From a virus: 64,000 nt of DNA. The stretch is taken from the IMG/VR virus record IMGVR_UViG_3300027770_000050, positions 1 to 64,000 of that record; one strand, written 5' to 3'. The position numbers and the translations under genes were made by a program. How positions within the stretch are numbered: the stretch's first letter is position 1; each line of letters opens with the position of its first letter. A model generated the notes under the pieces. It was not told the DNA's origin. It saw only the letters and a list, made by a program, of their open reading frames with translations, and ran no database searches. Shown piece by piece: positions 10,148 to 44,056 of the stretch.

Positions 10148-10854
10148 TGATTAAAAAAGTACCAGGGGAGTTTCGAGGATTTTCATTAGATCTTAATTTA
10201 GTTGATCTATTGATAAAAACTTCCCAAAATTCCGAGAAGATTGATGATCCAGTAAAACAAGTAATTCAACTGGGTCTTCAATCTTCTTGTTCTATTTATG
10301 TAAGATCTGATTCTTCAAAATCACAATGGTCTGGAAGCGGATTTCATGCTGGAAATGGCTTGATAGTAACCGCTGGACATGTTATTCCTTTAGATGCTGA
10401 CATATCAGAGATAAATGTCTCTTTTGATAACAAGCAGTTTTATCCAGCTAATCCCATCAAGTCAGACCCCAATATAGACGCTGGTGTTATTTACTGTGAA
10501 GGAGCAAAAAGATTCCCAGATCTTAAACTTGGTGACAGCGACACTCTCGAAAAAGGTGACATAATCGCAGTTATAGGAGCTCCTGAAGGTTTTCATGACA
10601 CAGCAACTGTTGGTAGAATTTCTAATTTACATCAAGGATTAGGTCAAGGGGCCCCATCTCAAGCTTGGAATGACATTATTTTCGTTGATGCTGATATAAT
10701 GGAAGGTTCTTCTGGCGGTATGGTCATAGGAACAGATGGACTTGTCTATGGTCTAGTTATGGGTGTAACAGGCCAGCATGCAGACGTTGGCATTGGCGAA
10801 AGTTCTGTTTCCCCATCAAATAAAATAAAGAAGATTTTGGCTGAAATAGTATAA
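10147..10854 (+). CDS. Trypsin-like serine protease (S1, HtrA-like protease domain without PDZ)
   Basis: GSGF, VTAGHV (His), IDAGV (Asp), EGSSGG (Ser) and LGDSDTL. Confidence 0.9.
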
Positions 10855-24955: not shown

Positions 24956-25567
24956 CTACAGGATGCGATCAGCTACACTATAAAGACCATAAAAATCCAA
25001 ATTACGTGCTAATTTTACCATGTTCTTGAGTTTTAGTGAAGCCATTGGCATTCCACCAGGAGCTCCTCCAGCTTGTTCTTTAGATTTATTTTTAGCAAAA
25101 CCAAATGACAGAAACTTAACCGCGTTAGCCATATCATCAAGTTCAATTTCTAAATCAATCAAACTTTGTCCAAATGGCAGTCTTTCCCATCTACTTTTAT
25201 CTGTGGCATTAATTTCTTCATCGGTAATTTCATTGCCTTCTTTCCTTTTACCGGAATGACCGTCTTTAACTCCACCTTCATCATCCCCGCCATACATTTT
25301 CCAAATTTTATTTGCAATTTCTCTTTCGTTAAATTGCAATTCTTCCATGAGCATTTTTTCAATTTCAGCATCAGCAAGTATAAGTCCCAAATTGGACAAT
25401 GGTTCTTTGATTGCTTTTTGATTTGAGCTTGGAGTTGCTCCTGGAGGTGGTGGCATCCCTGACATACCTGGAAGTCCTGGTAAAGGAGGTAATGAAGGCA
25501 TAGGTGCTCCCAATCCTGGTGGGGGTAAAATACCAGGAGGAGCAGCTATTTTTAAAAATTTGGACAT
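24956..25567 (-). CDS. Proline-rich hypothetical protein with a K-x-A tag and a C-terminal helical motif
   Basis: MSKFLKIA followed by a Pro/Gly tract; C-terminus MVKLARNLDFYGLYSVADRIL. Confidence 0.7.
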   Translation of the reverse strand: MSKFLKIAAPPGILPPPGLGAPMPSLPPLPGLPGMSGMPPPPGATPSSNQKAIKEPLSNLGLILADAEIEKMLMEELQFNEREIANKIWKMYGGDDEGGVKDGHSGKRKEGNEITDEEINATDKSRWERLPFGQSLIDLEIELDDMANAVKFLSFGFAKNKSKEQAGGAPGGMPMASLKLKNMVKLARNLDFYGLYSVADRIL

Positions 25568-26046
25568 TATCTTGAATGACCGCTTAGAGAATCAGTTTTA
25601 TGAGTGCCTCTTCCTGGAGTTTTAAAGACATCTGGAGATTGCTCAGCATTTTCAAAAGTTACTTCTGAAAAACTTTCTTCGTCTTCGTCAAATTCAAGCG
25701 CTTCTTTCAATCCTTCCGGATTGAGTATATCCATGTTGCCAAAACTTGATTTAGCAGATGACGCAACTCTCTTAATTAATTGCATAGGAGATAATCCTCT
25801 GCCATCAACATATCCATATGAAAAGTCATCTTCCCAAGTTTCTAGAACACTCATTGATTGTAACAAAGCATCAGTCAAGTATGCTTCAACTTGCCTTGAA
25901 CTTGTTTTTGTTAATTTTCTGGAGTTATATTTTTTATTTATAATTGCTGAAGCAGTTGCTATGATTTTAGCTGTCTCATCGTAGTTGTGTGCTTCGGGAG
26001 CAATTTCTTCCAATAGTGTATGAAGTTGAGCTTCTAGATTATGCAT
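25567..26046 (-). CDS. Hypothetical protein
   Basis: 159 aa, TAATG coupling to the next gene, upstream AAAGG-N18-GAAA. Confidence 0.7.
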   Translation of the reverse strand: MHNLEAQLHTLLEEIAPEAHNYDETAKIIATASAIINKKYNSRKLTKTSSRQVEAYLTDALLQSMSVLETWEDDFSYGYVDGRGLSPMQLIKRVASSAKSSFGNMDILNPEGLKEALEFDEDEESFSEVTFENAEQSPDVFKTPGRGTHKTDSLSGHSR

Positions 26047-26108
26047 ATTTTATCTCTCTTGATAAATTGTTATTATATTTTTTCAAATACGAAATGCTTT
26101 TACCTTTA

Positions 26109-29100
26109 CTAATCTTTTACTGTTTTGTATTCAGATTTGAATCTAAGGTTACGCACTTGACCATTTGTTGTAATATTATTTGCAGAAAGAATCGCAACAG
26201 ATGGTGTTTTTACAGCTATACCAAATATTTTACTTCGTGATGTTTGTTCAATACCTAGTTTTGCATTACCAATATTTATGGCATTGGAATAACCAGCTTT
26301 AAGAGTTTGCCAGGTTTCAGGAGAGCTATCGTAAGCTTCCGTTGTAGTATTAACCCAATCTATATTAGTTGTGTCTAATGTATATTCAGTCAATACTGTA
26401 TTTGACAAAAATGCTGGTAAAGGTAATTTTATTCTAAAATTATCTTCTGAATAAGTATTGCCACTACTTACTCTTACTGTGATTTGCGGTTTTACTTCAA
26501 CGCTAGTATCTAAATCTGTAGATCTTGACCAAACATTTGATGATCCAATGCTTGCTACATAATAGATACCATTTTGCGTCTTGTTGCTTTGATCTTTAAG
26601 TAAAACACGATCAAATTTTTCTAAAGTTACACCGTCTAATGTTGCTGGAGGATTTGTCAAAATTATGTTAGCGGTTGATGCAGCAACTACGTCACTTAAA
26701 AATGAATTGTTATTGACCTTTGCAAAATAAATAGGAGTAACACCTATTCCTGGGGATGAAATTGTTTCATCGTAAATCAATCCGTAATAACCAGATGAAG
26801 TATTTCCACCTAATACATTAACTTTTTTAGTAAGTGAAATTTGATTATCTAAAATTAAATCACTATGTCTTGTAAGATAAAACAAAGCACTTTCATCAAC
26901 AAAATAAATGCCATTTTGTTTATTGTTTGTTTGGTCCTTAAGTAATACTCTGTCACCTATTTGAACATTAGATATGTTTACAGCTAATCCTAATGCTTGA
27001 TTTTGTGTAGAAGCAAAAGAACACAAAGTATAGTTTGTCAGGTAATTTTGTTGGAAAAATTCAACATTATGTGTTCCAACAGTTGCAGTAGAAGGATTGA
27101 AATATGTTTCGTAAAATTTATTTGTGTTTGCATCTTTGACGAACAAACTTGCTATGGAAAATTGTGTTGTACTACTACCCGTACCAACTCTTATAAGGTT
27201 AGGTTGAGATACTTGCTTTACTCTTGCTACATATCTTTCAGCTTCAGAAGTTTGTCCTAAGAATAAGACTTTGTCTCCATCAGTCACTCCTATTCCGTTA
27301 ATTATGTCAGGTATTGAAGTAAATCCAGAATAATTTGCAGTAGAAACTCCAACAACATCTATTGTGAATTCAGAACCTAATTGTTTCCAGAATAGTGGAG
27401 TATTGAGAGCTGAGGAACCTAAATTATAAGCGCTACTATCTTCAGGAATATTTAATTCAAAAATTCTATTGTCATATGAAACTCTTCCAAGTTCATAAAG
27501 TTCATTAGTAGCATTTAAGTCAGGTGCTCTTTCTATTGTCCAGGTATAGTTTTGAACTGCTGTATATATGCCATTTTTAGTTGTATCTGTTTGGTTTTTA
27601 AGTAGTATTTTGTCACCAAATTGTACTGTGTAACTATCAATAATTGCTGTGCTAGCAATTCCAGATCCTTCGGGTATATATGTAAATGGAGTCAAGACAC
27701 CTTGGTAAGAAATATTATTTGGGTCTGGAATATTTCCTGTTGAACCAACGGATGTATTATAAATTGTTCTTGTTGAAATATCAATCCACGACCTAGAAGA
27801 AGTAGATTTGAATGAGCTTGTTGGATCAAAATACAAGCAGAAAGTTCCGTATCCTGCTGAGTTTTGAACACTTGCGTAAACTGCACTGAAATTATTTCCA
27901 GCAAATACAGATGTACCAGCTAATCCTACTGTAGCATATTCTGAACGTACAAATTTATATATTTTTTGATCTTTTTTACCTGTTTTATCATGAACAACTA
28001 AAGAGTTTTTGTCACTATAATATGAAGATTGATATCCACTATCAATAATTTTATCTGCATACGAAGTTGTTGGCTTGTTTGTTAGGACTAAAACATTACT
28101 ATCAGTTGAAAAAGCTATTCCACTATACCAAGTATTATCTAGTGTAGCAGCAGTTCCAGAGTTTGTAATTTTTTGTAAATATAAAGAACCAGTGTATATT
28201 CCTAAAGTATTTCTTGTAACTGGATCTGCAGCTACATCTGTAAATTTAGATGTATTACCAGAACCTGATTTAACATAGTATCCATCTGAAGACAGTCTCT
28301 GAGTAAAGAAATATTCTGTATTTGATGATGATTCAAAAATATTATGAATATGAGAACTATAGTTTTTATTTGCAGAATAAGATTTTATCCACGAACTTCT
28401 GTCCCTATTGTATTTCTTTTCTGTTGTAGTAGATGTTCCAGCACTGTTAACAATTTGGAAATATGCTCCGTCTTCAACCAAGTTTGCTGAAAGTTTTGCA
28501 GTAGTAGTAAGTAGATTGCTTCTGTAAGTTAGTGCTTGTGGTAAGTAATAATATCTATTAAATAATTGTTTCGGATCTTCATTGTATTTTGGAACTGAAG
28601 TATCTGTGTATAGATACATGTAAAGTGTTCCAGTCCATCCAGTTCCAGAAATTGACAATAAGCCATTTTTAGCATCAATAGTAAAGTTAGTATTTAAAGT
28701 TCTGGAGACGATTGTTCCCCCAGTTGACACTACATAAACATCTGCTAAAGCATCTGGATATTGTTTTTTATCCCATGTAAATCTTGTTGTTGGAGTTTCT
28801 GGTCTAGCTAAATATATAGTAGATCCAGTTGCAGAATATCCCACTAATCTTTTTGTAAAATCAAGGTATCCGTTGACTGAATTATATTTTACTTTTCTGA
28901 GATAATAATTGAAATTATTATCAATATGAACTATTTGATAAACACCACTAGTTGATTTTCTAACTGTATTATTATATAAATCTTCATTAGCAGAGTAATA
29001 GAAAACTCTATCACCAAGAGCATAATAATAGTTATTTAAATCACCAGAAACTGTACTGAAAAGTTGAGTTCCATTTCTTTTAACAATTACAATATCGTTA

Positions 29101-31928: not shown

Positions 31929-31946
31929 TATTTATCAACCATTTAA

Positions 31947-33314
31947 TTAATTTCTTCTAGCTTCCGGTCTATTGAAAATTTCGCTTGCTACAGCAGCTAA
32001 TTCAGACCTTTCAACCTTACTTAATGTTACAGATGAAACAAGTTCACTTTTCTTTCCACCAGAAATTGCGTGAGAAAGACCATTAGATTTTGCATCAAGA
32101 TAAGGATTTTCGACCTGTGAAAGGTCGCCAAGGAGGATGACTTTACTGTCTTTTCCGCATCTTTCTACAACCATCCTTGCTTCTCTAGGTGAAATATTTT
32201 CAGCTTCATCAAGAATAATGACAGATCGTGGGATAGAACGTCCCTGAATAAAAGCCATAGCCTCTACTTCAATAATTCCATCTCTGCACATTTCTTCAAA
32301 CATATTATTAGCTGAAAGAGATTTTGATCCTAAGATTTGATCAATATTATCTTTGATTGGACCAAGCCAAGCAGAGATCTTATCAAATTTATCTCCAGGC
32401 AAAGCACCAATATCTTTACCGCCAACAGGAATCAAAGGCTTCATAACAACAATTTTGTCATAGATACCTTCATTGATCATTTGTAACGCAGCTGCCAAAG
32501 CTAAGAATGATTTACCTGTACCTGCTGGTCCAGAAAGAGTTACAAGAGGAATAGTTAGATCAGCAAGAATTTCTAAAGCACATTTTTGTTCTAAGTTTTT
32601 ACCTTGAACACCAGAGTATCCTTTAGTCTCTTTTGCGTTAGATTTTTCTTTAAGAACTTTCAAAATACCTCTCTTGTATAGAGTTGGGCAAATACTTTCT
32701 CCATATTGAAATAAAATAAATTCATTTGGATATATATCACCAAGTTTATTTACTGTATCTTCGGATAATTTTTTAAGTTCAATTTCGTTATCAGACCATA
32801 AATAGGTCCAGTCTGCTTGGCTTGTAAGTTCTAAATTTCTTAAGCCAGTATAAATTTCATCAGAAAGTTGATCAGATCTGTAATTTTCAGCTGCACATCC
32901 CCATGTGATAGCACGAATTCTCAATCCAGTATCTTTTGTAATAATTGCAACTTTTTTTCTTGGGTTTGCAGATTTAAGAGCTAAGCAGCATTCTATAATT
33001 GCGTTATCAGAGTGAACTTTGACAATATTTGGTCGTTCGTTTTTTTGTAAAGGAGACTCTGTATTGTAGACGAACAATCTTCCTCCGAGCTCATTGATCT
33101 TCACACCTTTGAGAAGATCTTGAAGTGAATAATGTTCTAAATTTCTAAATACTTGTCTGGCTGACCATCCAACATTTTCTTTTCTTGTCTTGATGTCGTC
33201 TAAATCATCGATGACTGCTAATGGTATGTAAATATCATTGTCACCGAATTTATATAGGGCAAGGGGATCGTGAAGTAAGACACAAGTGTCGATGATGTAA
33301 ATATGCTTTGCCAA
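31947..33314 (-). CDS. phoH: PIN-domain PhoH family ATPase (PhoH2/YlaK-like)
   Basis: N-terminal PIN (IIDTCVLLHD...DDLD...DN.I...TKD), GPAGTGKS, GRS, ILDEAEN and GDLSQ. TTG start with SD GAGGAG. Confidence 0.92.
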   Translation of the reverse strand: MAKHIYIIDTCVLLHDPLALYKFGDNDIYIPLAVIDDLDDIKTRKENVGWSARQVFRNLEHYSLQDLLKGVKINELGGRLFVYNTESPLQKNERPNIVKVHSDNAIIECCLALKSANPRKKVAIITKDTGLRIRAITWGCAAENYRSDQLSDEIYTGLRNLELTSQADWTYLWSDNEIELKKLSEDTVNKLGDIYPNEFILFQYGESICPTLYKRGILKVLKEKSNAKETKGYSGVQGKNLEQKCALEILADLTIPLVTLSGPAGTGKSFLALAAALQMINEGIYDKIVVMKPLIPVGGKDIGALPGDKFDKISAWLGPIKDNIDQILGSKSLSANNMFEEMCRDGIIEVEAMAFIQGRSIPRSVIILDEAENISPREARMVVERCGKDSKVILLGDLSQVENPYLDAKSNGLSHAISGGKKSELVSSVTLSKVERSELAAVASEIFNRPEARRN

Positions 33315-33360
33315 ATTATTGGTCTCCTCGCATTTTTGTTGATATTATAATCACAGTATT

Positions 33361-33388
33361 CTTTTCTTTTTTATGCTTGGTGAGCCCT
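33361..33388 (-). promoter_or_regulatory. Putative phage promoter AGG-N19-GAAAAG
   Basis: Minus strand TAGG-gctcaccaagcataaaaaa-GAAAAG upstream of phoH. Confidence 0.5.
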
Positions 33389-33389
33389 A

Positions 33390-34394
33390 CTAAAAAGGCA
33401 AGTCTGGTTTATCTGATACAGCTTTTATAATCTTATGTTTATCAATATTATCAATAAAATCAGCTGCATTTTCATTCATTGTGGTTTCAAATTTTCTAAT
33501 ATTAAAAATTTGGTCTAGTTGTGACTTGTCAAATTCTTTTAATTTATCTGTTTCCATCCACTTTGTTTCAGTCACATTTGCAAGATTTTTATTTAATTTA
33601 TTTAGTTTGCCGTCTTTAAAAAGTAAAAGATCTCCCGATAATAAACTGTCTAAATAACTATGCGCATTATCAAGATTAGTTGTTTCAAGAAGATTTTGAT
33701 CGTTATATAAAACTTTAGTAATGCTAGCATTGGTCAAGATATTTCCCGTAGGACTTAGTACTTGTGTATTATCTCTTACAAAACACAAACTAGCTTTTGG
33801 TATACAAATATAAATCTTAAATGGTAATGCATGTTCTACATCAGAACTATCTGACAATCTTAGAACTTCATTTTCATCATTTACTATTGATATTACAAGT
33901 TTTGATTTGTTATCTGTATTCTTGATTACAAAATCCCATTCATAGTTGTGCTCATTAGAAGTTGGATAAAATGCTGGTACTAAATTTAATTCTTCTTTTC
34001 TTTCACATAATTTCAAAAATAAACTAAATCCAATGCTATCTTCTGGAGTACCTTTGCGATATGTTCCTACTTTACTCCAATCAACATCAAAATCACTTTC
34101 TAAGCTTCCAATAGTAAATTCATCAAAGAAACCTTGATCATAAATTTTTTTTAGAATTGGATCTTCAAGTATTCTTCTAGCTCTAACAATATCCAAAAAC
34201 GCTTCATTAGACCCACCAAAATCAGGGTGACATTTTCTAGCTCTTTTTCTAAAAGCACTTTCTAGTATTTGAGAAGTCTTAACTCTCTCATCTCTAGATT
34301 TACCACTTGGCAAATCAAGTTTATCAATATCTAAAATCTCATAATAATTCTTATTGAAATCGATTATTTTCTTTGGATCAAATTCATTTGACAT
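33390..34394 (-). CDS. J-domain protein (type III DnaJ-like) with unknown C-terminal domain
   Basis: NYYEIL...AFRKRARKCHPDFGGSNEAF...ARRILEDP..KKIYD. Confidence 0.85.
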   Translation of the reverse strand: MSNEFDPKKIIDFNKNYYEILDIDKLDLPSGKSRDERVKTSQILESAFRKRARKCHPDFGGSNEAFLDIVRARRILEDPILKKIYDQGFFDEFTIGSLESDFDVDWSKVGTYRKGTPEDSIGFSLFLKLCERKEELNLVPAFYPTSNEHNYEWDFVIKNTDNKSKLVISIVNDENEVLRLSDSSDVEHALPFKIYICIPKASLCFVRDNTQVLSPTGNILTNASITKVLYNDQNLLETTNLDNAHSYLDSLLSGDLLLFKDGKLNKLNKNLANVTETKWMETDKLKEFDKSQLDQIFNIRKFETTMNENAADFIDNIDKHKIIKAVSDKPDLPF

Positions 34395-34422
34395 AAGAGT
34401 TTTATAAAGATTTAAAGAATAA
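34395..34422 (+). promoter_or_regulatory. Putative phage promoter AAG-N19-GAATAA
   Basis: AAG at 34395-34397 and GAAT at 34417-34420, 9 nt before the ATG of the first MWY gene. Confidence 0.55.
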
Positions 34423-34429
34423 AAATAAT

Positions 34430-34909
34430 ATGTGGTACAAATTTGCTCAGACTCATCCTTATATTGAAAAAGCTATAGATAGATTTAATCTAACAAAGGA
34501 TCCTAATAAAGCTGGATATGTATTATCTGACGGTAAGATGTTGGATTTTTCAGATGGTCATGATGTCAGAGACCTTACTCATGACAGTGTTTTTGAAGTC
34601 ATGCCTATAATGCCAGATATAGAAGATGGATATACAAATTTTCATAAACAATATGTTGTTCCATTTATGCAAAGCACTGATAGTATAAGAATTTCTAAAG
34701 ATGGAAATGACTTAAGCGTTGAAATACACACAATTCCATCTAAAGAACAAATAATCGCTATACAAAAAAGTATAAACAAAGGTGACAATTTCTTTTACGA
34801 AATACCTATGCTTCCAAATGATCCTGGTGGCGCAATATATGATACTAATCCATCATATATTGGAAAATGGTTGACAGATATCAAAAACGTCATGATTGGA
34901 AAAAAATAA
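34430..34909 (+). CDS. Hypothetical protein, MWY-tag family
   Basis: Starts MWYKFAQ; contains KAGYVLSDGKMLDFS. Confidence 0.75.
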   Translation: MWYKFAQTHPYIEKAIDRFNLTKDPNKAGYVLSDGKMLDFSDGHDVRDLTHDSVFEVMPIMPDIEDGYTNFHKQYVVPFMQSTDSIRISKDGNDLSVEIHTIPSKEQIIAIQKSINKGDNFFYEIPMLPNDPGGAIYDTNPSYIGKWLTDIKNVMIGKK

Positions 34910-34910
34910 C

Positions 34911-35381
34911 ATGTGGTACAAAACTGCTCTCAAGGGACATAAAACTTACTATGATTTCAATGATCTTAGTTATGAATTGAAACAAGTTTCTGACACTGAT
35001 GATAGTGATTGGAAGCATTCTGGAACAAGAATGAGAATAATATCATATGTCTTAAATGCATATGATTTAGAACATATGGATAAAGATAAACCAGTTGGGA
35101 AAATGCATTTAGACTTAGATTTCTATAGTTCTGGTAAAAAACAAATATATATCAAATTAGTCAGAACTGATGATTACCATGAAGGGATGGGTGTAGCTTC
35201 TAATCTTTATAAATGGCTTAAATATAATTATGAGAATTTTGATAAACCAGAATATTTAGTTAGTAATCCAATCAATCCAGCCGCAGAAAGAATTAGAGAA
35301 AAAATATTAGGAAAACCTCAAAGTTTGTATCCTATGCGTGAATATGATTTAGATTATTCTCAAGGAAAATTGGATATTTAA
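34911..35381 (+). CDS. MWY-tag protein with a possible GNAT-like fold
   Basis: In-frame ATG 34911 gives MWYKTA. YHEGMGVASNLY resembles the acetyl-CoA-binding loop of GNATs. Confidence 0.6.
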   Translation: MWYKTALKGHKTYYDFNDLSYELKQVSDTDDSDWKHSGTRMRIISYVLNAYDLEHMDKDKPVGKMHLDLDFYSSGKKQIYIKLVRTDDYHEGMGVASNLYKWLKYNYENFDKPEYLVSNPINPAAERIREKILGKPQSLYPMREYDLDYSQGKLDI

Positions 35382-35807
35382 ATGTGGTATCGAGAAGCAG
35401 TAACATATAATCTCCTTGGTCAACTCACCGAAGGTAATCCAAAGAAAAAGATTATTAAACAATTTGTTGATGATGAAATTGATGATCTCAATATTGAAGA
35501 TCAACAAGATGATCAAACTGAGGAACCCACTCAAGAAGCACCAGAGTTTACTCCAGTTCCTACTAATATTCCCCCAGCAACAGACACACCTGCTGGAGTT
35601 GCAAATAGAGAACCAATTCAAGTTCAACTACCAGCTAATTTTAAAGTTCCACCATTGCATGAATTTTGTCATTGTGAAATAAATACATTGCCTAGCGGAA
35701 GACAAATTTGGAAACTTGGCAATGGGGAAATGCACTGCTCAGAATGTGTTATGAATAGAGATTTGTTTAACAGATCAAATGAATTAGCTTACAGAAATAT
35801 TACGTAA
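35382..35807 (+). CDS. MWY-tag protein with a minor-head-protein-like Cys/His motif
   Basis: Starts MWYREA. PPLHEFCHC resembles the PPxHPNCRC motif of Mu gpF/SPP1 gp7-type proteins; also HCSEC. Confidence 0.6.
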   Translation: MWYREAVTYNLLGQLTEGNPKKKIIKQFVDDEIDDLNIEDQQDDQTEEPTQEAPEFTPVPTNIPPATDTPAGVANREPIQVQLPANFKVPPLHEFCHCEINTLPSGRQIWKLGNGEMHCSECVMNRDLFNRSNELAYRNIT

Positions 35808-36390
35808 GTATAGTATTTATTTTTATTGTGTAACCGTGCAAATCTACATCAATCTTCTTTTTCAAGATTTTATTGTTTGGTGATTTGACAACTGATAATG
35901 CTTTAAACATTCTTGTTTTTAGCAATATAGAAATATCAAGCTTATTTATTTCTTTCTTTATAAAATTCTTTATTTTTAAAAAATCACTTTCTGTATGCAA
36001 TAAATTATAAAAAATAGTTTCTTCAAATGTTTCAAATAAATCAGAATAAATTTTAGATTCTTCTCTTGATATACATTTGAACAATTCTAGCAACGTATAG
36101 TTTATGTAATTATATTTTTTTAAATTTATAAGACAAAAATCATCTATTTCTTCTATTTCAAATAAAAAGTCAAGAGAACCATAAATTTGATGAAGTTCCC
36201 CATCATTTGTAATTAAATAGAAAGCTATTATTCTAAAGCTTTCTATTACACAAACAATAGGCTGTCCAGATCTTAAATTAAATTTTTCAAGCACACTTAT
36301 ATTTTTTGGATTTTTAATTCCAAGTAAATGTATTTCTTTTTCAATACTCTGTTTTACATTTTGTCTACAGAATGTTATAAATGCATTCAT
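35800..36390 (-). CDS. Hypothetical protein (very AT-rich)
   Basis: 196-aa ORF with ATGA overlap with the upstream gene. Confidence 0.6.
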   Translation of the reverse strand: MNAFITFCRQNVKQSIEKEIHLLGIKNPKNISVLEKFNLRSGQPIVCVIESFRIIAFYLITNDGELHQIYGSLDFLFEIEEIDDFCLINLKKYNYINYTLLELFKCISREESKIYSDLFETFEETIFYNLLHTESDFLKIKNFIKKEINKLDISILLKTRMFKALSVVKSPNNKILKKKIDVDLHGYTIKINTILT

Positions 36391-36989
36391 AAAATTATTT
36401 GATCTACAATTGTTTGATTTATATACTTTTCAGATAATCCCCAAGTATTTTTCCAATAATCTATTATTTTATTTTTTCTTGAAATTAAAAAATTAGTTTC
36501 GTGAATTCTTTTTGGTATATTCGTATCTTTTATTAACTTTGTTTTTTCTAAACTTCTTGTTTTGTAGAGATTAAAAATTTTGTCTGTGAATTTTTCATCA
36601 TTTTCTTCAATATACTTAAATAAATAATCTTCACTGTATGGATTTGTTCTGACGTGATCATGCAACATCACACAATCTGGATAATAATTATCAATTACCG
36701 AATTAATATGATCTAAAATAGTATTCTTTTTGTTTTTTGGTAATAAAAAAATATCTATAGGTTTTAAGTTTATTTTTTTCAAGTTGGCTTCGTTTTGTTT
36801 TTTAAATACTAGATAATTAAGTTCGTGAGATTTAATTATTAAATCTTCTGAATCAAAACACTTACAAAAAATAAACCAAGGACAATCTTCGCATCCTAAT
36901 AAAAATGCTCTCAAACTGATTAATATTTCTATTTTATCAAGTTGAGAGCATTCAGTTATTTTTTTACTGATCTCAAGTATTGTGTTCAC
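36387..36989 (-). CDS. Hypothetical protein (very AT-rich)
   Basis: 200-aa ORF, GTG start, operon packing. Confidence 0.6.
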   Translation of the reverse strand: MNTILEISKKITECSQLDKIEILISLRAFLLGCEDCPWFIFCKCFDSEDLIIKSHELNYLVFKKQNEANLKKINLKPIDIFLLPKNKKNTILDHINSVIDNYYPDCVMLHDHVRTNPYSEDYLFKYIEENDEKFTDKIFNLYKTRSLEKTKLIKDTNIPKRIHETNFLISRKNKIIDYWKNTWGLSEKYINQTIVDQIIL

Positions 36990-36995
36990 TTCTCA

Positions 36996-37283
36996 TCATT
37001 TTTCTTTGAACATCTCGCTGACTTTCTTTTCAATTAATGGCATCAATTCTAAACCTGGTGCTGCATTTCTTACATTACCAAAAGTTTGATATTCTTCTAT
37101 TAGCATATCTCTAAATCTTGCGAGATATCTACTCACCATTATGTCAGTGGGATTGTATATACGCTTTTGTAAAAAAAGTTTCATCAAAATAACTTTTTTA
37201 GCATCTGACATTATGATTTTTTCTTCATAATCTGGAAAACTTTTGTCATCTTTATCTTTTCTATTTAAAGCTTGATACCACAT
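36996..37283 (-). CDS. Hypothetical protein, MWY-tag family
   Basis: Starts MWYQAL; 95 aa. Confidence 0.7.
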   Translation of the reverse strand: MWYQALNRKDKDDKSFPDYEEKIIMSDAKKVILMKLFLQKRIYNPTDIMVSRYLARFRDMLIEEYQTFGNVRNAAPGLELMPLIEKKVSEMFKEK

Positions 37284-37284
37284 A

Positions 37285-37518
37285 TTATTTTTCTATCTTC
37301 AAGTCTTGTACGTGAATTTCATTGTAGGCAAAAGCTACATTTTGGCTTGGAACGTTGAATAAACATATTGACATTTTCTCATCTTTGTAAATAGTATAGA
37401 AATCTTTATTTACAATAAGAACTCCTTCAATATGTCCAATTAAGGTATTTGGATTGTAAGTTTGAATCTTCCATTTTCCAAATCCTCTATTTTGTGAATT
37501 ATTATCAATAATTGCCAT
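37285..37518 (-). CDS. Hypothetical protein
   Basis: 77 aa; SD GGAGGAG. Confidence 0.7.
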   Translation of the reverse strand: MAIIDNNSQNRGFGKWKIQTYNPNTLIGHIEGVLIVNKDFYTIYKDEKMSICLFNVPSQNVAFAYNEIHVQDLKIEK

Positions 37519-37599
37519 ATCTCTCCTCCAGATATCTATAGTATTATTTTATTCGACACTTATTTCCTACCTAGATGTATAATAAAAATAGGTAAATAT

Positions 37600-38967
37600 A
37601 TGTCAAAAAAGTCCCTTGCCAAAACAGTATGTAATTTTTGTGAACGTCCAGCTAGTAAAGAAGTTATCACAGATATTGAAGTATTAAGCGAATTATTGAC
37701 GGGTAAAAGCTTAAATATTTCTTTATGTACTTTTTGTTTTCAAAGTTATCTTGCTGGAAATAAATTTGGACAGATGCAAGTACATCAAAACATTCTTTCT
37801 ATGATTATAAACGCAGATGAAAAAGCTAGTGTTTTGTCTCTCAAAGAAAGGATCGCTGAAGTTGCTCCTGTATCTAAAAGACATCTTTTTGGTTTAAATA
37901 ATTACAGACTGAAGAATACTAGTCCACACGAGCTTTATGAGGCTTTGGAGAAAAAAGTAGTTGGACAAGATTTAGCTAAGAAAAGATTAAGTATTGCTGT
38001 TTACGAACACATAAGAAATATTATCAATGAAGATGTTTCAGAAAAGCAAAATATTTTGTTCCTTGGTCCTTCTGGTAGTGGAAAAACATTAATTGTAAAT
38101 ACAATCTCAAGTCACTTAGAAGTTCCATTTGTTTCTGGAGATGCAACTTCTTTTTCTCCAACTGGTTTTCAAGGTAGTGATGCTGATAGCTGTATTACTG
38201 ATCTTTTAATCAAAGCTAATGGTGAAACATCTTTAGCTGAAAAAGGTGTTGTTTTTATTGATGAAATTGACAAATTGGCTTCATCTCATAATTCTGCAAC
38301 AAGATTAGAAAGTTTTCATTATTCTACTCAATCAACATTGTTAAAGTTAATTGAAGGCAAAAAAGTAAAGATAAATCCAAATGCTCTGGGTGAACAAACA
38401 ACATTCCCTTACGTTGTAGACACTTCTAAAATCTTATTTTGCTTTGGTGGAGCGTTTAATCATTTAGAGAAAATTGTAGCTAAAAAGTTAGGTTTATCTG
38501 AAGGCTCAATTGGTTTTAGAAAAAATAATAAGTTAGAATACGAAAACCAAATAAAAAACTATGAAATTTACAACAATGTCTCACACGATGTTCTTGTTGA
38601 AAGTTTAATTGAATATGGATTAGCTACTGAATTTGTTGGAAGATTGCAGTCTATAGTTCCTCTTGTTCCATTATCTAAAGAACAAATGCTATATTGTTTG
38701 AAAGATTTAGATAATTCTCCAATAAAGAAAACTATTTTATTGTTTGCTGAATCAAATGTAGAAGTTGAATTTGATGAAAAATATTTTGATGCAGTTGTAG
38801 AAAAAGCTATTAAGTCTGGAACTGGAACTAGAGCTCTTAATTCAATTGTTAAATCATCAATTTCACAAGCAGCTTTTAGTTTATTAGGAAAAGTTAACTC
38901 AAGCAGGAAGCATATTGTTTTAACAGAAAAATGCGTTTCTAATCCTAATGAATATTTGACACTTTAA
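37600..38967 (+). CDS. clpX: ClpX-like AAA+ unfoldase
   Basis: N-terminal CNFC...CTFC zinc domain, VVGQDLAK, Walker A GPSGSGKT, Walker B FIDEIDK, GGAF, IGF loop, EFVGRL and sensor GTRAL. Confidence 0.92.
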   Translation: MSKKSLAKTVCNFCERPASKEVITDIEVLSELLTGKSLNISLCTFCFQSYLAGNKFGQMQVHQNILSMIINADEKASVLSLKERIAEVAPVSKRHLFGLNNYRLKNTSPHELYEALEKKVVGQDLAKKRLSIAVYEHIRNIINEDVSEKQNILFLGPSGSGKTLIVNTISSHLEVPFVSGDATSFSPTGFQGSDADSCITDLLIKANGETSLAEKGVVFIDEIDKLASSHNSATRLESFHYSTQSTLLKLIEGKKVKINPNALGEQTTFPYVVDTSKILFCFGGAFNHLEKIVAKKLGLSEGSIGFRKNNKLEYENQIKNYEIYNNVSHDVLVESLIEYGLATEFVGRLQSIVPLVPLSKEQMLYCLKDLDNSPIKKTILLFAESNVEVEFDEKYFDAVVEKAIKSGTGTRALNSIVKSSISQAAFSLLGKVNSSRKHIVLTEKCVSNPNEYLTL

Positions 38968-38995
38968 AGGATTAGAGCATCTTGAGTTTGAATTA
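38966..38995 (+). promoter_or_regulatory. Putative phage promoter AAAGG-N19-GAATTA
   Basis: AGG at 38968-38970, GAAT at 38990-38993, ATG at 39005. Confidence 0.6.
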
Positions 38996-39004
38996 TATAT
39001 TATT

Positions 39005-40066
39005 ATGACTGATCCACTAGAACAAATAATTTTACAAGCTGAAAAAATTGTTAAAGAAAATAATAAAGTTTATCAGTTTACTAAGATATCTCAATCTCAA
39101 ACAGCTTTTGCAATAAGAGCGAGAAATACAGCTGGTGATTTTACTTCATTTTTGACAGTAAGAGGAACTTCCGATGAAGCTAGCTGGGAAAGAGCTTTTT
39201 ATGGTCAAGGTTGGATGGATGTAAATGTTCATCCAACACTATTGACAGGATCAATTACAATAGCATCAGTACCATCAGCAGCCACTACTCCAGGAGATGC
39301 AGCGTTTACTCAAAGATCTTTTTCAGGAACTGCAACATCAGTTTCGGTTAAGCCATTCAAAAATTTCGATCCATTATTTTCTGTTCCAGGAATTGGACTG
39401 AGACGCTTCACTCCTGTTGCACACACCCCAACAACTCCATATGGTGTAAGTAGTTCTGATAATGATATTCAATTATACTTTATGGGATTGAGTAACGATC
39501 AAAAATACGAAATGAGATGGGAAGGTGGTAATTTTATGAGTTGGTGGAATGAAAGAGCAGCAAGAGCCGCTGCCCCTTCAAATTCAACTAGTCATCCACA
39601 TTCTGTTCCTCAATCTCCAGAAGCAGTTGCTGCATTTGCTCAAAAAATTCCTTTTAAGCGAGTTCCAGGATATGACGAATTCTTGAAATTAATGAGAAAA
39701 GTCAAGAGTGGAACTGGAGCTACGGCATTAGATATATTACCTGATGAAGCTCTAATTGATGAATATGAAAGCAGAACAGGCAACACAGTCCAAACTGTTT
39801 TTGCACTAGGTAGAGAGCGAATTATGAAGTTTAGGGATTACGATAGACCTATAATGATAAAATCACTCGAAAATTTACGATCTGCTTTAAAAGTTCAAGA
39901 GGATTATGAAACAGCTCAAAGTGCAGAAGATAGAATTGATGAAGATGCCAAAGGTCGAGCAGATACTTTCAAAAATAAAGTAAATGAAATTACCGGATTG
40001 GCAGGTGGTTTTTTAGGAGCTATTTCTGACGAAAAAAACCGCATAAAGGGAGATTATAGACCATGA
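39005..40066 (+). CDS. Hypothetical protein (candidate internal virion protein)
   Basis: 353 aa; N-terminal segment ending FTKISQ. Confidence 0.7.
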   Translation: MTDPLEQIILQAEKIVKENNKVYQFTKISQSQTAFAIRARNTAGDFTSFLTVRGTSDEASWERAFYGQGWMDVNVHPTLLTGSITIASVPSAATTPGDAAFTQRSFSGTATSVSVKPFKNFDPLFSVPGIGLRRFTPVAHTPTTPYGVSSSDNDIQLYFMGLSNDQKYEMRWEGGNFMSWWNERAARAAAPSNSTSHPHSVPQSPEAVAAFAQKIPFKRVPGYDEFLKLMRKVKSGTGATALDILPDEALIDEYESRTGNTVQTVFALGRERIMKFRDYDRPIMIKSLENLRSALKVQEDYETAQSAEDRIDEDAKGRADTFKNKVNEITGLAGGFLGAISDEKNRIKGDYRP

Positions 40067-40737
40067 AAAAAGAAGCAATATATCCTGGTGGTAGAGCAGC
40101 ATTTGTTCGTCAACTTCTTAATGCAACTTTAAATCCTCAAGCAATGTCTGATTTTTTCACTAAACCTGAAGGGTTTCAAAGAATGTTAGATTTGGGATTT
40201 ACCAACTGGGCAAGCTTAGCTACAGCTTTAGGTGGACATGACTACAAACCTCAAGAAATGGTTGGTATGCAAGAAAATCCTGGATATAGAATACCGGGTT
40301 TAGACCCAGCAGCAGAAACAGACTTAGCTGCTGGAGGTTTTGATTACTTAGGTCCTCACTCTCCTACTGTTCCATCTTCAACACCACGCCCTTCTGGAAT
40401 TGCACCAGAACCTGATCCTGATGTTTATTATGAAAAATTAGGGTCAGGAAATAAAAAGTTTAGATTAGCAAATCAACCTACTCCTGAACAACCAGCCCAA
40501 GCTGAAACATCAAAACCTCCATTACCAGGTTGGACTTTTGAAGATTTAGTTGCTTCTTTGAAAAAAATTGAACGGTCTCAGCAATTATCAGAGGAAGCTA
40601 AGGTTCAAAATTATAAAAGAATACTTGATGAATATAGTAGTAGCATGCGTCCATTGAGAAATTGGTTGTCTCAAAATGGTATTTCTTCACAGCAGTTAAA
40701 AGGCATAGCAAATGAAGCTGAGAAAAGACGTAAATAG
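40063..40737 (+). CDS. Hypothetical Pro-rich protein (candidate internal virion protein)
   Basis: 224 aa, ATGA overlap; MKKEA and internal KFRLAN. Confidence 0.7.
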   Translation: MKKEAIYPGGRAAFVRQLLNATLNPQAMSDFFTKPEGFQRMLDLGFTNWASLATALGGHDYKPQEMVGMQENPGYRIPGLDPAAETDLAAGGFDYLGPHSPTVPSSTPRPSGIAPEPDPDVYYEKLGSGNKKFRLANQPTPEQPAQAETSKPPLPGWTFEDLVASLKKIERSQQLSEEAKVQNYKRILDEYSSSMRPLRNWLSQNGISSQQLKGIANEAEKRRK

Positions 40738-41617
40738 TTTATTAAAAATATCCGATAAACTTGATAAAGAAGGTAAATATACACTTGCTGACAGTGTATT
40801 TAATTTGCTTAAAATTTCTCAGTTTTCTCCAACTCCAACACAGTTGCCAACTACACAAGTTAATTTACCTGAAAGCTTGAGACCATTCTTGAGTCCAGAC
40901 ACATTTCAGGATAGCGTATTAGTTAATAAAAATGTTATGAGGCAAGTAGATGCTCCGTACGCAAGCAAGTTTGGTCCTGATACTCCATTAATTTTCAATA
41001 CATTAACTCCAACTCAATATGCTCAATTAGAAAGCTCAGGAAACTTACAAAAAATACTTGACATACAAAGTGCTCAAGGTGCTGCTGCTCTTAAATATTT
41101 AGCTTCAACAGGAGCTGATGTTCAAGGATTAGGAGCTTTAATTGGACAATGGTCTAAAGCTCCTAATCAAAATAATAAAGTTGTTGTTGAAAATGCTATT
41201 GCAACTTCAGTGTCTCAAGCAGTTGTTGATGGTTTGTCAGCCATAACAACCAACAGAAATAAATTTAATTTCAATGAATGGCAAATGAGATTGAACGAAA
41301 TATCTGGACAAATAAATAGATATCCACCAACTTTAGCTTCAGCAATATCCCAGGGAATCAACACGGGACTTAGAAGACAAATAAATAAGTTGTCAACTCA
41401 AAATCCTGATGTTTTGAGAAGATCTATTTCTCCATCCAACCCTGACTGGATGTCATTTGCTAGTACACATGGTTTGTCAAGCTTTACATCACAGTTTGGT
41501 TCAGGTCCAGTTCCTGCAGCTGTACCGAAACCAGCAACTAAACCAGGAGCACCAACAACTCCAGACACAGAAGCTACTCCTGGGAATAAACCTATTTCTG
41601 GAGAACCAGCAGTATAA
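40712..41617 (+). CDS. Hypothetical protein with N-terminal helical motif (candidate internal virion protein)
   Basis: LLKISDKLDKEGKYTLADSVFNLLKISQ; Q/N/P-rich. Confidence 0.7.
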   Translation: MKLRKDVNSLLKISDKLDKEGKYTLADSVFNLLKISQFSPTPTQLPTTQVNLPESLRPFLSPDTFQDSVLVNKNVMRQVDAPYASKFGPDTPLIFNTLTPTQYAQLESSGNLQKILDIQSAQGAAALKYLASTGADVQGLGALIGQWSKAPNQNNKVVVENAIATSVSQAVVDGLSAITTNRNKFNFNEWQMRLNEISGQINRYPPTLASAISQGINTGLRRQINKLSTQNPDVLRRSISPSNPDWMSFASTHGLSSFTSQFGSGPVPAAVPKPATKPGAPTTPDTEATPGNKPISGEPAV

Positions 41618-41641
41618 TCTTATTGACTGTATAAAATATGC

Positions 41642-42409
41642 ATGTCAGATTTATGCCCTTTATATTTACAAGAAAAAAGCTGTCTCTTAAAATTAGTTTC
41701 AAATTCTACAATTACTTCAGTTTTATCTAAAATAGACCTTGAAGTGATTAACAATACTTGGAACCTTGATTGTGAAGGCAGCTTGTCTAATTGTAGTTTT
41801 AAAAGTCCAAGTGAGCAAGTTTTTCAAAATGTAGAACCTGAGAAACCTGTTGTAGAAGAGGAAAAACCAGAAACAAAAATTCCTCAAGAAACTACTAAAG
41901 TAAGTATTCATATTGTTAAGAATCCATATCTAGTAAAATCTGATGTTCTTTTTTATCCTACCAATATAGCTTTAACAATTGACGATCCATTGTTGATGAG
42001 ATTATCATTTGGAAAAATTCAAGAAGAATGTGATACTTTCAAGAAGCCATACAAAATGGGCACTTTGTATATCACTTCTAATGGTGGAGAAAATTCTAAA
42101 GTACAAGCCAAACATGTTTATCATTTAACAGTCTCAGGTGTAAGTAGATTAGTTAATGAGGGAGATGTAAAGTCTGCTTTGAGAAAAGCTTTAGATATGG
42201 CAGACACAAATAACGCTAGAAATGTTGTCATGCTCCCTGCAGATTGCGGAACTCATGACATAAATGACATTGCTAGAGTACAGCTATCTTCTATCAAAAC
42301 TTATTTATCAACACATAAAAATTGCAAAATAAAAAACGTTTTTATTGTAATGGAAGACAAGGAAAGCTATCAAGTGTTCGAAGAATATTATAATAGAATT
42401 TTTGATTGA
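41642..42409 (+). CDS. Macrodomain-like protein with Cys-rich N-terminus
   Basis: DVLFYPTN, G.IQEEC, GTLYITSNGG, AKHVYHL, VVMLPADCG and IKNVFIV follow the macro (Appr-1''-p) fold order. Confidence 0.7.
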   Translation: MSDLCPLYLQEKSCLLKLVSNSTITSVLSKIDLEVINNTWNLDCEGSLSNCSFKSPSEQVFQNVEPEKPVVEEEKPETKIPQETTKVSIHIVKNPYLVKSDVLFYPTNIALTIDDPLLMRLSFGKIQEECDTFKKPYKMGTLYITSNGGENSKVQAKHVYHLTVSGVSRLVNEGDVKSALRKALDMADTNNARNVVMLPADCGTHDINDIARVQLSSIKTYLSTHKNCKIKNVFIVMEDKESYQVFEEYYNRIFD

Positions 42410-42423
42410 GGTAGTTTGCACTT

Positions 42424-42768
42424 ATGGAAAATAATGAAGAATACGCAAGTCCATCGAAACTACTGATGGGCATTTTAGATACTTTTATAGCTCCTACTTG
42501 TATAGTAGATGATTGTGATAACTGTATTATGAATGAATTGGCTAAAGAATTATACGATAAAGGTTTTGATGTTCCCGGATATTCTTTACGTACTAAAAAT
42601 GGTTCAACATCAACATTTTTTCATAAAGGTAAAAAGTATTTTATCAATAAAAAAGATATGAACCACGGTACAAAAAGTTTTTTATGCACTATTGAACTTG
42701 AAGATGAAACTATTTTAAAATTGAAAAAATCTTCTGATAAGTTGAAAGAAGTTCTTAGTGTCCTCTAG
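42424..42768 (+). CDS. Hypothetical protein (weak PAS-like start)
   Basis: ILDTFIAPTCIVD...MNELAKEL; SD GAGG. Confidence 0.55.
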   Translation: MENNEEYASPSKLLMGILDTFIAPTCIVDDCDNCIMNELAKELYDKGFDVPGYSLRTKNGSTSTFFHKGKKYFINKKDMNHGTKSFLCTIELEDETILKLKKSSDKLKEVLSVL

Positions 42769-42777
42769 GGTAGCCTC

Positions 42778-43236
42778 ATGCAAGAAGAAAATAACATTGG
42801 GATAGAGCAACTTAAAAGCGTCTACAAAGCACATACTGAAGCGTACCTTGATTTCAATATGGCTTTGATCAATATTATATCTAATCAAAAAGAATTAATA
42901 AGTAAAGTTGAAACTCTCAAGTCTATTTCAGATGAAGAGTTTAGAAATCTTGCTAAAGAATATGCTGTTTTAGAAAAATTATTTGAAAACTTCCAATCAA
43001 CTCAATTAAAAAGAGACAATGAATTAGAAGAAGTACAAGTTGAATATACTGCTCAAATTTCAAACTTTGGAACAGATATTGAAGAAGTAAAATCTGAGTT
43101 AAAGCAGATGAAAAAAATCTATTGGGATATTAAAAACAATATCAACAAAGCATGGTGGACTATTGGTGGAGTTATAGCTTTCTTAACTGCTATCCAATTA
43201 ATTACTGGTAAAGGTATTGTAGATTTTCTAAAATAA
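42778..43236 (+). CDS. Coiled-coil protein with C-terminal TM anchor
   Basis: Heptad-rich E/K/Q body; terminal hydrophobic segment AWWTIGGVIAFLTAIQLITG. Confidence 0.7.
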   Translation: MQEENNIGIEQLKSVYKAHTEAYLDFNMALINIISNQKELISKVETLKSISDEEFRNLAKEYAVLEKLFENFQSTQLKRDNELEEVQVEYTAQISNFGTDIEEVKSELKQMKKIYWDIKNNINKAWWTIGGVIAFLTAIQLITGKGIVDFLK

Positions 43237-43466
43237 TGCCAACTGTAACCTGTGCTTGTGAAATATGCGGAAAGTTATATTACTCTAAAGATGAGTTGTA
43301 TCTTCCAGCAATGAAAAATGGATATAGATTTTCACGCAAAGATAAGACACTAAAAACTTGGGAAGATTGGATAATACACGTATCAAGTCACTGCGAAGAA
43401 TGCAGGTTAAAAGAAGTACCTGAAAGTTGCGAACTTGATAAACTTAAATACAGAAAATTAATCTGA
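43236..43466 (+). CDS. Small zinc-finger protein
   Basis: CEICG...HCEEC; TAATG coupling. Confidence 0.65.
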   Translation: MPTVTCACEICGKLYYSKDELYLPAMKNGYRFSRKDKTLKTWEDWIIHVSSHCEECRLKEVPESCELDKLKYRKLI

Positions 43467-43766
43467 AACTAATTCTGTAAATACTGAAGGAAGCTTAGAT
43501 AGCGTAGCTTCAGAACTATTTGGATCTTCAAGTAACTCATGAAGCATCCCACCAACAATTTTTTCCAATTCAGCAACTACTTCTGGATCATTGAAAATTT
43601 CGTTTGCTGTCATACTGGAATTTTCTCCAGGAGCTTCTTTTTGCTGTTCGGGATTTTGTTGAATTTCAGGTGTTTGCTCAATAGCATCAACAAGGTTATT
43701 AGCTTCATCTTCAAACCCATTTTCAGCTAAATTTTTTACTATTTGTGCTAGCTTGTATATATTCAT
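43458..43766 (-). CDS. Acidic hypothetical protein with K-x-A-Q tag and helical motif
   Basis: MNIYKLAQIVKNLAENGFEDEANNL. Confidence 0.65.
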   Translation of the reverse strand: MNIYKLAQIVKNLAENGFEDEANNLVDAIEQTPEIQQNPEQQKEAPGENSSMTANEIFNDPEVVAELEKIVGGMLHELLEDPNSSEATLSKLPSVFTELVSD

Positions 43767-44056
43767 TAGTCATCACTCTTGAAAAGTTCAGCAAATAGTA
43801 TATCAACTTTGGAAGCAATCTTAGTATTGTTTTCAGAGCTAAAAAGCTTAGGAGGTAAACATCTTTCACAAACCATTTTGCCAACTCTGTCTTCTTGATT
43901 GAAAGGAGAGTATTGTAAAAATTCCTTTCTGTAAAGAGTAAGTTGACCAAATGGAGTCATGGTTCCACAAGTATCACACTGCCTTCCCATAATTCTAGGT
44001 TGATTGGCAGGTGTTGAATTTTTCTGATATTGTTTAATTTGTTCAGTTGGAATCAT
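43766..44056 (-). CDS. Small zinc-finger hypothetical protein
   Basis: CDTCG...CERC; TAATG coupling to the next gene. Confidence 0.65.
   Translation of the reverse strand: MIPTEQIKQYQKNSTPANQPRIMGRQCDTCGTMTPFGQLTLYRKEFLQYSPFNQEDRVGKMVCERCLPPKLFSSENNTKIASKVDILFAELFKSDD

Follow-up and report, generated by a model that had tools for sequence, protein, structure and literature searches.

The 64,000-nucleotide stretch of DNA analysed in this study (hereafter the window) comprises the first 64 kb of an 86,315-bp IMG/VR virus record (IMGVR_UViG_3300027770_000050, called G000), and four otherwise unrelated open reading frames (ORFs) in it begin with the residues Met-Trp-Tyr (MWY). The comparative analyses suggested that MWY[KR]-x-A, together with the related form M-[NS]-W-Y-K-x-[AS]-Q, is a portable N-terminal tag that addresses proteins to the capsid or virion, like the capsid-targeting sequence (CTS) of phage T4, a reading to which a probability of about 0.5 is given. 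The original prediction had described such starts as an address label combined with a cleavage site; the comparative evidence, which is indirect, speaks for the address-label half and not for the cleavage half. The address label is supported by the following observations: the tag is a disordered module, constrained at the level of the peptide and carried on unrelated folds; the domain of the most widespread tagged family, that of the 159-amino-acid (aa) protein encoded from position 34430 (the 34430 family), lies in giant proteins of the polyvalent type, which are predicted to be injected; and tagged peptidoglycan hydrolases exist and a tagged gene precedes the portal gene in two relatives.

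We infer that the tag binds a component of the head and that its carriers are packaged into the virion and ejected into the host. In the mechanism proposed, a clade of uncultured freshwater megaphages would place the tag on a varying set of single-domain proteins, whose genes form tight islands on one strand, and the free, unstructured N-terminus of each protein would dock to a component of the assembling head, which could be the core, the scaffold, the portal or a protease fusion. Once packed into the virion, they would leave it with the DNA at infection, and the tag would replace, in function, the covalent linkage of the same kinds of domain in giant polyvalent proteins. If the tag is such a loading signal, the proteins injected by a whole clade of uncultured giant phages could be listed from sequence alone; such proteins are what a phage first deploys against the defences of its host, and without virion proteomics they are hardly findable. 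Moreover, the tag would join the T4 CTS and the polyvalent fusion proteins as two solutions to one problem, and polyvalent domains would be deliverable as separate tagged units. A portable tag of six residues is also a natural candidate for protein-delivery tools.

Occurrence and conservation of the MWY tag

The record G000 is a fragment of a freshwater megaphage. The window has a G+C content of approximately 33%, and parts of it turn up in 20 metagenome runs, which come from 16 studies and include lakes and other fresh waters. GyrA/GyrB-like and ClpX-like genes are present in the record (names read by eye; the GyrB-like gene served as a tblastn query only), as are a helicase, proteases and many very large ORFs. 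Four relatives (G001-G004) are 48-122 kb long, and because they score 13-34% complete by CheckV, genomes of approximately 360-490 kb are implied for the clade. Genes were called with our own procedure (first ATG, ORFs of at least 45-50 aa), which misses small genes and other start codons. The statistics on G000 rest on 60 genes called in this way, and MWY tripeptides were counted in six frames of the whole record. The comparative material comprised 19 metagenome loci holding a gene for the 159-aa protein (L001-L019), pooled family DNA of 423,345 bp, 30 non-redundant tagged carriers, and a background set of 236 listed loci that had been fetched with a loose two-tag DNA pattern and were mostly chance matches.

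The tagged proteins of the window are the following:

34430..34909, plus strand: tagged protein 1, 159 aa, start MWYKFAQ, with the tag MWYKFA encoded at 34430-34447
34911..35381, plus strand: tagged protein 2, 156 aa, start MWYKTAL, GNAT acetyltransferase fold
35382..35807, plus strand: tagged protein 3, 141 aa, start MWYREAV, an acidic and Pro-rich linker followed by a C-terminal Cys/His motif
36996..37283, minus strand: tagged protein 4, 95 aa, start MWYQALN, Q at position 4 replacing K/R

Every peptide quoted in the original prediction was present where it had been placed, and its claim that four otherwise unrelated ORFs share an MWY start was borne out. The M-W-Y-[KRQ]-x-A pattern occurs far above chance, with 4 M-W-Y starts among the 60 called genes and 0.023 expected (Poisson P = 1.2e-8). 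In the six frames of the record MWY is found five times, and four of the five are starts of ORFs (95-159 aa). In the background set, 32 of 659 MWY tripeptides were start-like; eight of these 32 also carried [KRQ]-x-A, and all eight lay in three true relatives.

The tag was kept among relatives over large distances. Orthologues of the 159-aa protein retain M-W-Y-[KR]-x-A-Q down to 47% identity, and M1, W2 and Y3 are invariant in 16 sequences of the 34430 family and its distant paralogues (down to 32% identity). All 49 MWY tripeptides in any frame of L001-L019 were ORF starts, new families being tagged too, and 74 of the 79 in the pooled family DNA were strictly start-like, with three more probably so. 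The consensus of the 30 carriers was M, W and Y, followed by R (16), K (11), Q (2) or S (1) at position 4, by F, T, L or others at position 5 and by A (22), V (4) or others at position 6, M-W-Y-[RK]-x-[AV] being common to them; the Q at position 4 of the 37283 protein is kept in its orthologues.

Tagged genes were likewise found in groups elsewhere, with four clustered MWY tags and one more in G001, 10 MWY-start genes within 12.5 kb in G002 and five in G003. Another locus (L282 6563-19138, 29% G+C) holds six MWY genes and one MWF gene, which include genes for 763- and 500-aa proteins, and also encodes proteins of 1307 and 1092 aa with the helical-hairpin module described below. In L001 (10482-11700), and also in L002 and L003, a 248-aa MWYRKAL gene stands between the 159-aa gene and the GNAT gene; cassettes seem to have been gained in these three loci exactly at tag boundaries.

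A second lineage uses the form M-[NS]-W-Y-K-x-[AS]-Q. Five of the best 150 (of 1785) matches to a profile of the 34430 family start M-N-W-[YF]-K, and 0 to approximately 100 variable residues lie between tag and domain in the MNWYK group. In the relative G004 (107 kb, 22% complete) the tag DNA pattern is matched exactly at 10 sites, all on one strand within 14.5 kb, and the control DNA pattern at none; M-[NST]-W-Y opens at least 13 of the ORFs in G004. Because this lineage uses starts of the M-N-W-Y-K-x-A-Q type, MNIYKLAQ (43766) is, on sequence grounds, a credible relative of its tag, and the apparent recurrence of K-x-[AS]-Q arises because the second-lineage tag carries this string.

The codons of the tag were variable. 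Tyr is encoded by TAT in 17 tags and by TAC in 13, Lys or Arg by AAA, AAG, AGA, AGG and CGA, and Ala by four codons. In L001-L003 an orthologue of the GNAT gene keeps W-Y-K behind a GTG start (this gene lies outside the ATG-only calls and was found separately), and one orthologue carries MWF instead of MWY. Since codons vary synonymously, GTG precedes WYK and an MWF variant occurs, the constraint on the tag appears to act on the peptide. These data bear directly on the possibility that the shared start is a feature of translation initiation, with the codons after AUG selected for initiation or early elongation without a Shine-Dalgarno sequence. The motif always stands at the start codon, the upstream DNA is A-rich with no obvious Shine-Dalgarno sequence and often abuts the previous stop, and the genes are tightly packed on one strand, all of which would suit such a feature. 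However, it is the amino acids that are conserved while synonymous codons vary, K and R alternating via AAA, AGA and CGA, and the extra residue of the sister lineage (M-N/S-W-Y-K) shifts the RNA register and keeps the peptide. Moreover, only 4 of the 60 G000 genes use the motif, and W and Y are costly, specific residues. A translational origin was consequently judged highly improbable.

The tag also behaves as a module outside the fold that follows it. In the alignment with distant paralogues (32-39% identity), a 4-residue indel lies directly after the invariant tag residues. AlphaFold2 gave a predicted local distance difference test (pLDDT) score of 89.3 for the 159-aa protein, with residues 1-5 below 50, and of 75.3 for the 156-aa protein, with residues 1-10 below 50, and hhalign of these two tagged families confined their similarity to residues 1-9. 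In these models the tag is a modular, predicted-disordered element outside the fold and the only similarity between the two families. It could instead be an inert relic, all carriers having been duplicated from one ancestral gene whose first residues they kept, as the tandem arrangement of the genes and the true paralogy of some of them (the 159-aa and 158-aa families) might suggest. However, the carriers differ in fold or family (GNAT, M23, GH108, PcfJ-like and an unmatched alpha/beta domain), and the three tag residues are invariant while the remaining sequence drops to approximately 30% identity, so that selection on the tag is required. The different folds and the hhalign result largely refute the relic, which is barely credible.

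The reach of the searches was as follows. The 159-aa protein had no tblastn match in 50,697 deposited phage records. A search with the first alignment of its family (A1) gave no relatives in viral contigs and genome contigs; the more diverse A2 and A5 alignments found relatives. A search of the ESM Atlas returned unnamed or sub-threshold rows only, no RNA dataset was listed as holding window 33300-38000, and the MWY motif was not found as a peptide in a full-text literature search.

Carriers of the tag and polyvalent proteins

After removal of the first eight residues, 53 carriers fell into eight BLASTP clusters, the 159-aa and 158-aa families sharing one cluster as true paralogues. The body of the 34911 protein gave 17 Foldseek matches in the PDB at E<=1e-3, all of them GNAT-type domains. 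The sequence after the tag had earlier been noted to differ from case to case; the carriers have unrelated folds, and the GNAT-like one is a GNAT fold by Foldseek. A second tagged family had weak GNAT matches in Pfam (Acetyltransf_1, 22.5 bits; cutoff 20.7). The assigned tagged proteins of G002 are the following:

220 aa: Peptidase_M23 (2e-33)
248 aa: GH108 lysozyme (5.7e-21) and, just under the Pfam cutoff, a peptidoglycan-binding domain
543 and 737 aa: two PcfJ-like proteins

In each tagged protein with a family assignment, a single catalytic or main domain was recognised. No combination of disparate domains in one polypeptide was seen in the assigned tagged proteins or in the 159-aa model, and the sub-threshold peptidoglycan-binding matches of the GH108 protein were the nearest to a second domain. 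The 35382 and 37283 proteins had no match to Pfam or PHROG families; for the former there was none in Pfam even at E<=10, and for the latter no family match at E<=10. An assignment of the 35382 family to MuF/SPP1-gp7, suggested by the likeness of its Pro-Pro-Leu-His...Cys-x-Cys motif to a signature of that group, was dropped on this Pfam result.

The body of the 34430 protein was confidently modelled by AlphaFold2 as a single alpha/beta domain. The protein had no Pfam or PHROG match, its model had no Foldseek match in the PDB (best E 0.73), and VIA-align gave nothing above Z 3.5 among 48,161 chains (root-mean-square deviation 3.2 Å, 76 aligned residues). In a search of 1.84 billion proteins, the profile of the family retrieved 1785 cluster representatives at E<=1e-3; 44 of the best 150 of these were at least 1000 aa long (the longest 6128 aa) and carried the domain internally. 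In P0020, a protein of 1299 aa, the profile matches seven stretches. In IMG/VR the domain was found in ORFs of at least 1000 aa in 19 of 24 untagged loci, and in a second scan in 75 of 77 loci (80 loci, of which L283, L373 and L375 were left out as duplicate contigs). When the profile was compared with giant ORFs, 13 of 14 matched (E 9e-17 to 9e-8, Z = 1e6); the first matched profile position lies between 8 and 14 and hence behind the tag, and the giants lack the tag. Many giant polyvalent-type ORFs (IMG/VR loci L308-L370, phages of approximately 20-40 kb) begin M-[AG]-W-[STK]-[AS]-x, with Trp at position 3.

Five giants scanned against Pfam contained MuF_C and LPD3; Radical_SAM, GNAT and DUF7178; cREC_REC; and a zinc ribbon, and ART-PolyVal reached 30.0 bits, just under the cutoff of 31.2. 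By their sequences, the giants that bear the 34430-type domain appear to belong to the class termed "polyvalent proteins" by Iyer et al. 2017; for this class, packaging and injection together with the DNA are predicted in that work, and GNATs are among the domains listed for it (PMC5512222). Domains from the polyvalent repertoire are present in the tagged set (the 34430 family), and in this the tagged set resembles the giants with their MuF_C, LPD3, ART-PolyVal, GNAT and radical SAM domains. In contrast, a polyvalent protein is one polypeptide, whereas the tagged proteins are single-domain and separately encoded.

Head genes, known systems and alternative partners

The head module of G003 begins with the large terminase, a 330-aa gene, a 152-aa gene with the hairpin module and five further genes, and continues with a 180-aa MWY gene, the portal (3.7e-33) and a 1383-aa protein that contains a head-maturation-protease domain (3.2e-20); after two more genes comes the major head protein (2.5e-67). 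A 553-aa gene directly precedes the 180-aa MWY gene, and proteins of 556 and 217 aa also belong to the module. In G001 this MWY gene likewise stands before the portal, with the large terminase nearby. The main tag islands lie away from head and portal genes, and the portal-adjacent tagged gene was seen in G001 and G003. No MuF or portal fusion was found among the tagged proteins in family searches, which were run on a subset of the 87 collected.

The maturation-protease domain of G003 was a match to phrog_18299 (3.2e-20), Pfam giving no protease match. It opens the 1383-aa protein (residues approximately 52-244; L279 4498-8649, minus strand, corresponding to G003 86498-90649), which starts M-Y-K-V-A-K, a tag-like sequence without Trp. 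Towards the C-terminus of the neighbouring portal (786 aa; L279 8775-11135, minus strand, corresponding to G003 90775-93135), residues 703-772 form an MTES_1575/DUF559 endonuclease-like domain. For the large terminase, the ORF length is 1070 aa in G003 (100805-104017, minus strand) versus 707 aa in G001 (38809-40932), which suggests an insertion in the longer form, such as an intein or a homing element. In the window, the protease in question is the following:

10147..10854, plus strand: Trypsin_2 protease, 235 aa, with LIKTSQ at residues 22-27 and the catalytic domain at residues 63-203

Any role for this protein as prohead protease, or any link between it and the tag, would be hypothetical; by sequence, the maturation-protease domain of G003 lies in another gene, beside the portal.

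In T4, the CTS is a short N-terminal peptide that binds the prohead core; nothing else is conserved among the internal proteins that carry it, which are highly diverse (PMC3012670 and PMC7411985). The tag shows this hallmark of a short N-terminal peptide on otherwise unrelated proteins: like the CTS of IPI, IPII, IPIII and Alt, it stands at the extreme N-terminus as the only conserved part, and in T4, too, the carriers include host-modifying enzymes. T4-type phages also hold CTS genes in variable clusters. Compared with T4, the tag has up to 10-14 carriers per fragment, including peptidoglycan hydrolases and proteins of 500-900 aa. In T4, gp21, the prohead protease, removes the CTS by a cut at a defined site, whereas no conserved residue marks such a site behind the tag. 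T4 is unrelated to these megaphages, and the likeness of tag and CTS is one of architecture.

Two further systems have N-terminal signals for the head. The first 30 residues of P1 DarB suffice to target the protein, and a reporter, into the capsid (PMC9024508). DarB is similar to the tag carriers in having an N-terminal packaging signal; its signal comprises 30 residues on one 250-kDa protein, whereas the tag is a six-residue motif common to many. For the phage SPN3US, many ejection proteins are reported, and their N-terminal parts were proposed to target them to the prohead (PMC7411985). SPN3US and phiKZ-type phages thus share with the tag carriers the giant phage background and a proposed N-terminal targeting. 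Unlike the tag, their propeptides are 111-130 residues long and cut at A-x-E, a motif of which no conserved counterpart was seen by eye behind the tag, and no shared start sequence is described for them in that account. The principle is already known from T4 and P1, and the tag would be a new form of it.

The surroundings of the tag island in the window bear on other possible partners:

33390..34394, minus strand: J-domain-like protein (J-domain read by eye), divergent from the tag island, with no PHROGs family match
37600..38967, plus strand: ClpX-like ATPase, flanking the tag island

A DnaK/DnaJ set also lies near the island. The tag could direct its carriers to some common partner outside the capsid interior, namely a tail or baseplate ejection complex, a chaperone or hub (the J-domain protein or a phage DnaK), or the cell envelope. 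Such a partner would be compatible with an exposed and modular tag, with an island divergent from a J-domain gene and close to the DnaK/DnaJ set, with the two tagged peptidoglycan hydrolases, which must reach the wall, and with the hairpin module, whose similar core marks other proteins of the same islands. Nevertheless, the tag has no signal-peptide or transmembrane character, a peptide of six residues being too short for either; the 34430 domain has its relatives in head-associated polyvalent proteins with MuF_C; and the tagged gene adjoins the portal and not tail genes. A partner other than the capsid interior is considered rather unlikely.

By analogy, the tag might also be an N-terminal degron or handle for the phage ClpX (with host ClpP, or as an unfoldase alone) that times the removal or remodelling of effectors. 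ClpX recognises unstructured N-terminal degrons of three classes (PMC12723719). The tag resembles these degrons in being short, at the extreme N-terminus and unstructured in the models described above. Its order of hydrophobic, hydrophobic, basic and hydrophobic residues also resembles the class-1 ClpX consensus that Flynn et al. reportedly described in 2003. Moreover, a ClpX gene flanks the island in G000, L001, L005 and L006. However, this linkage is confined to near-syntenic close relatives, and a homologue of the window ClpX was found in none of the four other tag-bearing fragments (G001-G004, whose completeness of 13-34% makes this absence uninformative). The carriers look like delivered effectors, the tagged peptidoglycan hydrolases and the head-module gene are hard to square with a degron, and the polyvalent kinship points to delivery, not turnover. 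A function in ClpX recognition accordingly seems decidedly unlikely.

Several points weigh against the reading of the tag as a head address. All tag-bearing phages are known from metagenomic fragments alone, which are 13-34% complete by CheckV, and the receptor of the tag in the head is hypothetical. In the window, the island lies between the J-domain gene and the ClpX gene, outside the head module. Most tagged proteins have no recognisable function in family searches. The injection of polyvalent proteins is a prediction of Iyer et al. 2017 and no measurement, and the polyvalent link covers one tagged family alone: when 87 tagged proteins were compared with 14 giants by phmmer, only the 34430 family matched, and the giants had been chosen by that family. 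Finally, no residue is conserved after tag position 7 in the 30 carriers, and position 7 itself is occupied by I (7), Q (5), L (5), V (4), K (4) and others. This last result also removes support from the claim that the tag is a cleavage site, Q7 being present in 5 of 30 carriers, and an x-x-E cleavage motif was not conserved in these carriers in a look by eye. Nothing in the sequences shows or suggests that the tag is cleaved; a cut inside the tag might still occur.

Hairpin module, loose motif and neighbouring features

Further proteins of the window had been grouped with the tag in the original prediction by strings similar to it. These are as follows:

24956..25567, minus strand: MSKFLKIA protein, 203 aa, with a Pro-rich stretch after the start and the hairpin module at the extreme C-terminus
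39005..40066, plus strand: FTKISQ protein, 353 aa, with FTKISQ at residues 25-30, kept in three of four orthologues (by eye)
40712..41617, plus strand: LLKISQ protein, 301 aa, with LLKISQ at residues 32-37 closing an N-terminal hairpin module (K-[IL]-[AS]..LD..G.Y..AD)
43458..43766, minus strand: MNIYKLAQ protein, 102 aa, the start being also the first helix of the helical-hairpin module

The hairpin module comprises approximately 35 residues, K-[IL]-[AS]..LD..G.[YF]..[AS]D followed by hydrophobic-x-K-hydrophobic-[AS], and is found on many otherwise different proteins, N-terminally (once C-terminally), interleaved with MWY genes. In G001 and G003 the second gene after the large terminase carries it as well, and the N-terminus of the 40712 protein matches G001 41965-42423, which is the gene in that place. 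The positions of the module are the following:

Window: 40712-40825; 43670-43766 (minus strand); 24956-25020 (minus strand)
L008: 4042, 6804, 9525
L015: 1714, 2507
G001: 32145, 41965
G002: 52721, 53903, 54878, 55321, 55821
G003: 99284, 112063

To judge from these sequences, MSKFLKIA, LLKISQ, MNIYKLAQ and similar strings belong to the hairpin module or end it. The first hairpin helix and the tag have a common hydrophobic-hydrophobic-K-hydrophobic-[AS] core, and we infer that one partner may read both. A wider reading is tentative: a non-covalent address code (hydrophobic-hydrophobic-[KR]-hydrophobic-[AS]), presented on a bare six-residue N-terminus (MWYKxA or MNWYKxAQ) or in the first hairpin helix, might dock dozens of separately encoded effectors on one prohead receptor and so replace the covalent polyvalent protein. 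These effectors would be acetyltransferases, wall hydrolases, PcfJ-like proteins and domains of new fold. If this were true, the genome of an uncultured virus would reveal the full set of proteins that it injects, and cassettes would be swappable at the tag.

The loose motif [KR]-x-[AS]-Q, which had been taken for part of the same signal, was enriched near the N-terminus and not over whole proteins. Anywhere in the G000 proteins it was seen 10 times versus 9.35 in shuffles (93 of 200 shuffles reached 10), and within the first 45 residues six times versus 1.0 (none of 200 reached six). The narrower pattern hydrophobic-hydrophobic-K-hydrophobic-[AS]-Q, which was defined after seeing the data, occurred five times versus 0.24 in G000, four times versus 0.28 in G002 and not at all versus 0.17 in G001. 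For MKKEA and KFRLAN (40063), which had also been listed as relatives of the tag, no support was obtained. The suggestion that several tag genes lie behind an A(A/G)G-N19-GAA promoter did not hold either, as the pattern is at chance: ARG-N19-GAAW was found 48 times on both strands of 8626-59814, versus 52.05 expected from shuffles (72 of 100 shuffles reached 48). One match (34395-34420) directly precedes an MWY gene.

Two other proteins were noticed by eye. A 322-aa ORF of G002 (51288-52256, minus strand) has a prepilin-like N-terminus of the hydrophobic F-T-L-I-E-L-L type. In the window, a 206-aa protein (44135-44755, plus strand) has an N-terminal hydrophobic segment and a lytic-transglycosylase-like motif, and is a candidate for an untagged wall hydrolase.

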